Shown piece after piece: positions 29,582-29,890 of a stretch of 64,000 bases of DNA. Under the pieces are notes generated by a model. That model was not told the origin of the DNA and searched no databases. It saw only the letters and a program-made list of their open reading frames with translations. Positions within the stretch are counted from its first letter, which is position 1. Every line of letters starts with the position of its first letter. Where the stretch lies: NCBI GenBank assembly GCA_965285935.1, contig OZ260662.1, positions 21,390,001-21,454,000 on the forward strand, read 5' to 3'. Origin of the DNA: Ophelia neglecta (lineage: Eukaryota). Position numbers and translations under genes: made by a program.

Positions 29582-29818
29582 TGTTTGACGTGTGGCTGCC
29601 TCGAGAGCTAGGTCCGAACTGACAATCCGCCCGCCTAAAACCACCCAACCCGAACCTACCGCTCTTATGTCATATAGGCCTAGGCTTTTCAAACCCGTTA
29701 TCGTTCACGATGACCCGCTGTACACTCCCTCATACCGTAATCTCTGGATTACCGCATCAAAACTACCGAGAAAATATTTATTCGCTTATCCGTTTCTCAA
29801 CCGCGAATAAATTATATT
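29582..29818. repeat. Split direct repeat A2
   Basis: Near-identical to 39742-39984 (a few SNPs, one fewer AGGCCT unit). Confidence 0.95.
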
Positions 29819-29890
29819 CTAGTATAATTTTGCTTATATTTAATATATAACAAAACTCATTCCGCTTGACTTTTTGCATTGACCCGCTCG
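29817..29890. repeat. Split direct repeat B1, abutting A2
   Basis: Copy of 29230-29303; overlaps A2 by TT. Confidence 0.95.

Follow-up and report, generated by a model that had tools for sequence, protein, structure and literature searches.

The 22 bp at positions 29809–29830 of the window (the whole stretch of 64,000 nucleotides analysed here) make up the internal B1/A2 junction of a PAT-like tyrosine recombinase (YR) retrotransposon with split direct repeats, and the anatomy of this element identifies them as the chromosomal template for its circle junction. The junction is very probably the donor recombination site of the element, with crossover at a TT dinucleotide, and the perfect 8-bp inverted arms flanking its 6-bp spacer are candidate YR binding elements in an 8-6-8 geometry, an assignment towards which we lean slightly. 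The proposal of a symmetric core is backed by position statistics and by the Cre-like fold predicted for the enzyme, and is weakened by the absence of arms from the one relative found. What emerges is a known kind of element with a plausible, testable and as yet unconfirmed candidate core site.

Element Layout and Classification

The features of the element are collected in Table 1, together with the repeats of a relative on contig OZ220009.1 (L001). The gag-like ORF, pol and the YR gene all lie on the minus strand of 29230–39984, and self-BLAST returns the split direct repeats A1...B1A2B2 expected of PAT-like elements. A YR gene is present, broken and with its R, K, HxxR, HxxW and Y motifs in pieces, as is RT-RH followed by MT, with 32–44% identity to the pol of the relative and with the RT core deleted. 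Split direct repeats in combination with MT denote PAT-like rather than Ngaro elements (PMC3266345, PMC9210276), and, as judged by layout and MT, 29230–39984 is a PAT-like retrotransposon. Members of this group within the order DIRS (PAT, TOC, kangaroo, SkowPAT) show the same A1...B1A2B2 arrangement, the same gag / RT-RH-MT / YR order and no true target-site duplication; the layout found here is no different, whereas a symmetric junction core is not described in the portions covered of the two papers (PMC3266345, PMC9210276). Ngaro elements share the repeat layout (PMC8547959) and, unlike the window element, are without an MT domain, and an Ngaro assignment was rejected on the MT-like region at 37586–37975. 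DIRS1-like elements have the MT domain in common with the window element, with terminal repeats that are inverted plus an internal complementary region in place of split direct repeats; this assignment was rejected as well, the element ends showing direct repeats only in self-BLAST and no inverted terminal repeats. No second copy or solo repeat of the YR element was found by self-BLAST in the window.

Table 1. Positions of the YR retrotransposon, its junction and its coding remnants in the window, and of the repeats of the L001 relative
Feature	Position	Strand	Remarks
Whole YR retrotransposon	29230–39984	-	split direct repeats: A1, coding region, B1, A2, B2
Repeat A1, element 5' end	39742–39984	-	one arm and TT, then target-derived sequence
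Repeat A2	29582–29818	-	94.2% identical to A1, one 6-bp indel (self-BLAST)
Repeat B1	29817–29897	-	overlaps A2 by exactly TT (self-BLAST)
Repeat B2, element 3' end	29230–29310	-	96.3% identical to B1; donor spacer and one arm; starts with TT
Left inverted arm, AAATTATA	29809–29816	.	lies in A2, close to where repeat A starts (element strand); candidate YR binding element
6-bp spacer, TTCTAG	29817–29822	.	candidate strand-exchange region
Crossover dinucleotide, TT	29817–29818		overlap of A2 and B1
Right inverted arm, TATAATTT	29823–29830	.	within B1; candidate YR binding element
gag-like ORF remnant	39253–39726	-	35% identical to first ORF of L001, E=1e-16; gag label from position
pol remnant (RT/RH/MT)	37364–38986	-	frameshifted; tblastn with L001 pol
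Dam-like MT region	37586–37975	-	Pfam E=2e-4, below the curated cut-off; 44% identical to L001
YR N-terminal piece	36091–36857	-	core-binding domain, first catalytic Arg and Lys
YR C-terminal piece	30100–30384	-	three reading frames; HSLR, HGRW and catalytic Tyr motifs
LINE inside the YR gene	30385–36090	-	APE-RT; 5.7 kb; 20-bp target-site duplication 30365–30384 / 36091–36110
L001 repeat A	5890–6129 / 11229–11465
L001 B end, identical 15 bp	11138–11152 / 11858–11872		diverged upstream

The copy is dead: a LINE interrupts its YR gene, which is also frameshifted, and the core of its RT is deleted. Relative to the L001 pol, which as a query carries Pfam RVT_1 (E=1.7e-11), the pol remnant is without about 105 codons of the RT core. 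The N-terminal piece of the YR departs from the family reading frame just before the LINE, and all YR catalytic motifs are still recognisable in the pieces. An earlier note on this DNA held that the enzyme could be rebuilt from 36105–36836 plus 30100–30384; the pieces are indeed located there, but no simple join restores the gene, which is frameshifted and has its C-terminal piece spread over three frames. The APE-RT ORF of the nested LINE is open over 1184 codons (30530–34084), and the same LINE has a broken upstream ORF region and a short TAA-type tail.

Several other elements occupy the window. A second LINE lies at 45268–50121, with open ORFs of 471 and 1145 codons (APE-RT), and a Gypsy-type LTR element at 52491–57821, with one open ORF of 1620 codons in which protease, RT and RH are seen by Pfam and an integrase-like region by eye only; its 179-bp LTRs are 99% identical, their ends are not TG...CA, and there is no obvious target duplication. 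Short MITE-like elements at 42884–43110 and 9132–9510 have terminal inverted repeats of 45 and 36 nt, respectively, and tandem repeats at 58750–59230 and 16119–16335 have 72-bp and 43-bp units, the 72-bp array being open for more than 120 codons in two frames.

Sequence and Geometry of the Junction

The earlier note had read 29809–29830 as perfect 8-bp inverted arms around a 6-bp spacer and had placed both element breaks at the spacer edge, and the sequence bears this out. The arms AAATTATA and TATAATTT are exact reverse complements of 8 bp each, composed solely of A/T, and their complementarity ends there: longer arms of loxP size were rejected, as only 8 of 13 positions are complementary at that length. 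At the left end of the element GGTGAC abuts TTCTAGTATAATTT (29230) and at the right end AAATTATATT abuts ATCACA (39984), both outer ends and the internal junction converging on one TT at the spacer edge. Since TT is present in the internal junction and at either element end, in one copy each, one of these is target-derived, with a 2-bp duplication and target-derived homology being indistinguishable on the basis of a single element copy. The repeat anatomy likewise agrees with the claim that the junction is the donor (circle-junction) sequence of a split-repeat YR element.

That donor role, together with homology of 2–3 bp, is the already published model for the order DIRS (PMC3266345 Table 3; PMC9210276), in which integration is thought to occur between a circle junction and a short identical genomic sequence (PMC3266345, PMC7192593). 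For DIRS1-like elements a 3-bp circle junction recombining with the identical genomic sequence has been proposed, the junctions being NTT in most of 28 elements and 2-bp (CG, AA) in 2 of the 28 (PMC3266345 Table 3), and AA termini have been reported (PMC9210276). No description of inverted arms at a DIRS, PAT or Ngaro junction was found in the literature searched, which did not extend to Poulter and Butler 2015 or to the founding work (Duncan et al. 2002; Goodwin and Poulter 2001, 2004; Poulter and Goodwin 2005), and this suggests that the arms are the unreported part within that scope. Palindromes are not mentioned in the covered portions of PMC8547959, PMC7192593, PMC6681497, PMC13465315 and PMC3212892, and in those of PMC5633606 for rDNA only.

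The empty site is a reconstruction from the two flanks, the window holding no empty allele. Compared with the donor, TT is the only contiguous match, three of the six spacer bases are alike and the flanks are unrelated, and no donor-like arm is present in register in the reconstructed target. The weak palindrome that the earlier note had seen in this target (GTGAC-TT-ATCAC) was rejected as chance-level and out of register: its 4-bp run is matched in 23% of 20,000 shuffles, its 6/8 matches recur at 7–9% of window positions, and it is centred on TT, two bases away from the register of the donor core.

Chance Level of the Arm Symmetry

Perfect 8-bp arms with 6–8-bp spacers occur seven times in the window, two of these being one nested site, so that the motif alone is unremarkable and its position is what stands out. 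Local shuffles (30–60 nt) place such arms at the crossover in 0.2–0.9% of cases. In a mock-crossover test every window position was scored (63,940 positions, with counts that include 29809–29830 itself): 35 positions reach 8/8 arms in any register, and 14 do so with the dinucleotide on the spacer edge. Restricted to positions of at least 80% A/T, the A/T content of the junction surroundings, the corresponding counts are 12 and 5 of 2,920. The placement of the arms at the crossover is suggestive and not proof, as the test is post hoc and concerns a single site that was picked for its appearance, the arms are all A/T and a second palindrome lies nearby. The latter, at 29834–29850 (also 29247–29263) in repeat B, has 6-bp arms around 5 bp and starts 3 bp past the right arm, marking the region as prone to symmetry; it could be an accessory site or A/T noise.

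These numbers bear on the possibility that the donor junction and TT crossover hold while the symmetry is incidental, the YR recognising an asymmetric or longer site. The arms would then be a chance product of an A/T-rich junction, for instance where a TATA-like promoter element opening repeat A adjoins the A/T-rich end of repeat B. We regard this as possible, though we would not bet on it: the base composition, the second palindrome, the 12 A/T-rich positions that reach 8/8 in some register and the post hoc choice of the site all fit it, yet by position the coincidence would still amount to about 0.2–0.4%, and it would have to include the spacer length predicted for a YR and placement on the edge.

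A Distant Relative with the Crossover and without the Arms

A scan of prokaryotic genome contigs gave one relative (L001, OZ220009.1) among 47 pattern matches, with a YR about 39% identical to that of the window and the same gene order. Its contig is filed as the chromosome of a bacterial MAG, yet is eukaryote-like in its microsatellites, a kinase-like fragment and a retrotransposon, and probably represents host contamination. The two B repeats of this relative (11093–11152 and 11810–11872) have diverged except for their terminal 15 bp, suggesting that the B tip alone was re-templated from the junction or is under selection.

The flanks of the L001 element are duplicated (3466–5889 and 11871–14309, 2.4 kb, 95% identical), so that the right flank is also available as a real empty copy. 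Between element end and this empty site exactly 2 bp, AT, are common; this lends independent support to 2-bp homology, and the earlier note's figure of about 2 bp of target homology is borne out by TT in the window and AT here. The left end of the L001 element appears rearranged, most simply by loss of 78 bp from A1, and the duplicated flanks are most simply accounted for if an empty allele and a filled one underwent unequal exchange, with removal of these 78 bp. Because of this apparent rearrangement two readings of the junction were scored, and in either one symmetric arms were sought with the same outcome: 2/8 or 3/8 in the edge register and 4/8 at best. The earlier note had staked its proposal on conservation of the arm symmetry in related families, and here that expectation failed, the arms being present in the window and absent from the single relative (1/1), which is distant and rearranged at its 5' end. 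Retention of a 2-bp crossover without arms speaks for incidental symmetry; against this, L001 is a weak test in view of its YR identity and that rearrangement. On the element strand the junctions read CTAG-AA-TA in the window and CATG-AT-TA in L001, with 5 of 8 positions identical in a post hoc comparison.

The L001 junction 14-mer (11142–11155, also 11862–11872) has a 13/14 inverted copy at 11770–11783, about 90 nt before the 3' end, which resembles an internal complementary region within a split-repeat element; AATCAT is repeated four times in the L001 tail and may partly explain this copy.

Folded single-stranded DNA serves as a recombination site in the integron attC and CTX-phage type of system. 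The arms at 29809–29830 might similarly form a hairpin or folded single-stranded site, with one strand exchange followed by replication completing integration, a reading that we consider unlikely. The observed ends require only one exchange at TT, the L001 14-mer and its inverted copy do pair in the fold, and DIRS-1 makes single-stranded cDNA usable for integration (PMC7192593). However, the L001 fold falls short of significance (z 0.4 and -1.3), and an inverted junction copy of this kind, sought with up to three mismatches, is absent from 29200–30100 of the window. The window hairpin itself has little stability (-3.0 to -3.8 kcal/mol, z -1.0 to -1.5), is missing when the predicted circle junction is folded to minimum energy and would put the crossover in a 6-nt loop.

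The YR Enzyme Family

The N-terminal piece of the YR has five homologs at E≤1e-10 among 445 candidates (one search) and 1,579 (exhaustive search), and, among the homologs inspected, the one named entry is a hypothetical protein from the pearl oyster Pinctada imbricata. A phage search gave no match, and a plasmid search with 52 records gave, among the best 10, distant bacterial integrases of 24–29% identity. Pfam returns for the YR piece a weak N-terminal match only (E=0.003), so that classification rests on the homologs. When the window piece and 29 of 157 proteins were combined into a 30-sequence profile, it had 17 matches in the PDB, all to Cre or its variant Tre at E 5e-21 to 2e-19 and spanning nearly the whole profile. 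The predicted structure of the homolog P0001 (pLDDT 90) matches Cre best (Z 21.5, rmsd 4.2, 284 aligned), followed by Xer (Z 17.1), the integron integrase (15.3) and Tn1549 Int (13.7), and Foldseek agrees on Cre as the closest. Judged by profile and predicted structure, the YR family is Cre-like. The alignment with Cre begins at residue 36 of the 367-residue P0001, leaving no room for an N-terminal arm-binding domain, and the Met of the window YR at 36836 aligns near residue 32 of the homolog. Core sites alone would accordingly be the expected substrate of an enzyme with this modelled architecture.

Proposed Mechanism and Comparison with Known Systems

YRs cut at the edges of a spacer and swap short 5'-OH ends that pair beside the cut (PMC5871717). 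In the mechanism that we propose, the 8-bp arms on a double-stranded circle would be bound by two Cre-like YR subunits, which would cleave at the 6-bp spacer's edges, at positions predicted from the geometry and with the first cut on the + strand directly 5' of TT. Once freed, this TT end would pair with TT of an otherwise unrelated chromosomal target and be ligated as for the CTnDOT integrase, after which the second exchange would be independent of homology, or replication or repair would resolve the junction. In the observed copy the B end carries the donor spacer and target bases lie beyond the A end, as expected from the first-exchanged strand; and with one arm retained per end, integration would be effectively irreversible and re-excision unlikely. 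The 6-bp spacer, lying within the 6–8-bp range of YRs (PMC3212892), argues for the arm geometry. Against it stand the 8-bp arms, which are shorter than the 11–13 bp typical of YR sites (PMC3212892), the armless relative (1/1), the armless target and the single copy in the window, as well as the finding that DIRS-1 cDNA is mostly linear and single-stranded, its circle junction not being amplifiable (PMC7192593).

The junction had been called loxP-like in the earlier note, and this description survives in part. Cre/loxP is alike in its inverted arms and asymmetric spacer, and Cre is the closest solved structure to the YR family; the window junction, too, has an asymmetric spacer within 6–8 bp and a crossover at its edge, with cleavage positions as predicted above. 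On the other hand, loxP has 13-bp arms and an 8-bp spacer (PMC11260471), and both of its partners are armed, share the same spacer and recombine reversibly, whereas here the arms measure 8 bp, the partner is armless and the spacers agree at three of six bases. That the event was nevertheless of true loxP type, between two partners with arms and a common spacer of which the target has since decayed, is highly improbable. The Cre-like YR would suit it, but it is largely refuted: donor and target have only TT contiguously in common and are unrelated in their flanks, repeats of 94–96% identity are too young for such decay, and L001 likewise shows 2 bp only.

By analogy the junction would resemble, in its working, the circle junctions of CTnDOT and Tn916/Tn1549 more than it resembles loxP, while belonging to neither family. 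For IntDOT, complementarity of 2 bp is required at the first cleavage, with no such requirement afterwards (PMC2817482), and in the Tn1549 circle a crossover region of 5–7 nt is flanked by AT-rich inverted repeats (PMC5871717). These systems resemble the window element in having a circle junction, inverted repeats, 1–2 bp of identity by the first cut and heterologous targets (PMC2817482, PMC5871717), and such identity is found at the presumed first cleavage both in the window (TT) and in L001 (AT). They differ in being bacterial DNA elements that excise, and the Tn1549 repeats are 11 bp long and imperfect. Their integrases have an N-terminal arm-binding domain, with 81 residues before the core in Tn1549 Int (PMC5871717), whereas the window YR leaves no room for one, and by Z score its family stands nearer to Cre than to Tn1549 Int. 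Starships and Cryptons also show short homology between end and target in place of a duplication (TTAC; CAYCG) (PMC10104507; 10.1101/2022.05.23.493040), but are DNA transposons with other YR families and 4–6 bp of homology.

Taken to its full extent, the proposal would be that a compact, Cre-like eukaryotic YR free of an arm-binding domain recognises donor arms only and integrates circles one way at almost any TT/AA by CTnDOT-like 2-bp homology of the first strand, with the 22 bp as the complete donor core; we put this forward tentatively, as a doubtful extension. Each family would in that event have its own core, of which L001 would hold an asymmetric variant.

Conclusions

The specificity of DIRS YRs had seen no experimental investigation as of 2020, according to the portion covered of PMC7192593, and the published model specifies a junction motif of 2–3 bp but no binding site for the enzyme. 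From a concrete 8-6-8 core with crossover at the edge one can predict where cleavage falls, in which order the strands are exchanged and which end patterns should be seen among copies, which makes the question directly testable. Should the symmetry prove to be chance specific to this family, the element would be an ordinary dead PAT-like copy. If the core is confirmed, it would connect the YR retrotransposons of eukaryotes with the minimal-homology chemistry that conjugative transposons use, and would point to a small one-way integrase; and if the 22 bp are indeed the complete donor core, they would be the first defined recombinase binding site for the order DIRS in the literature searched.
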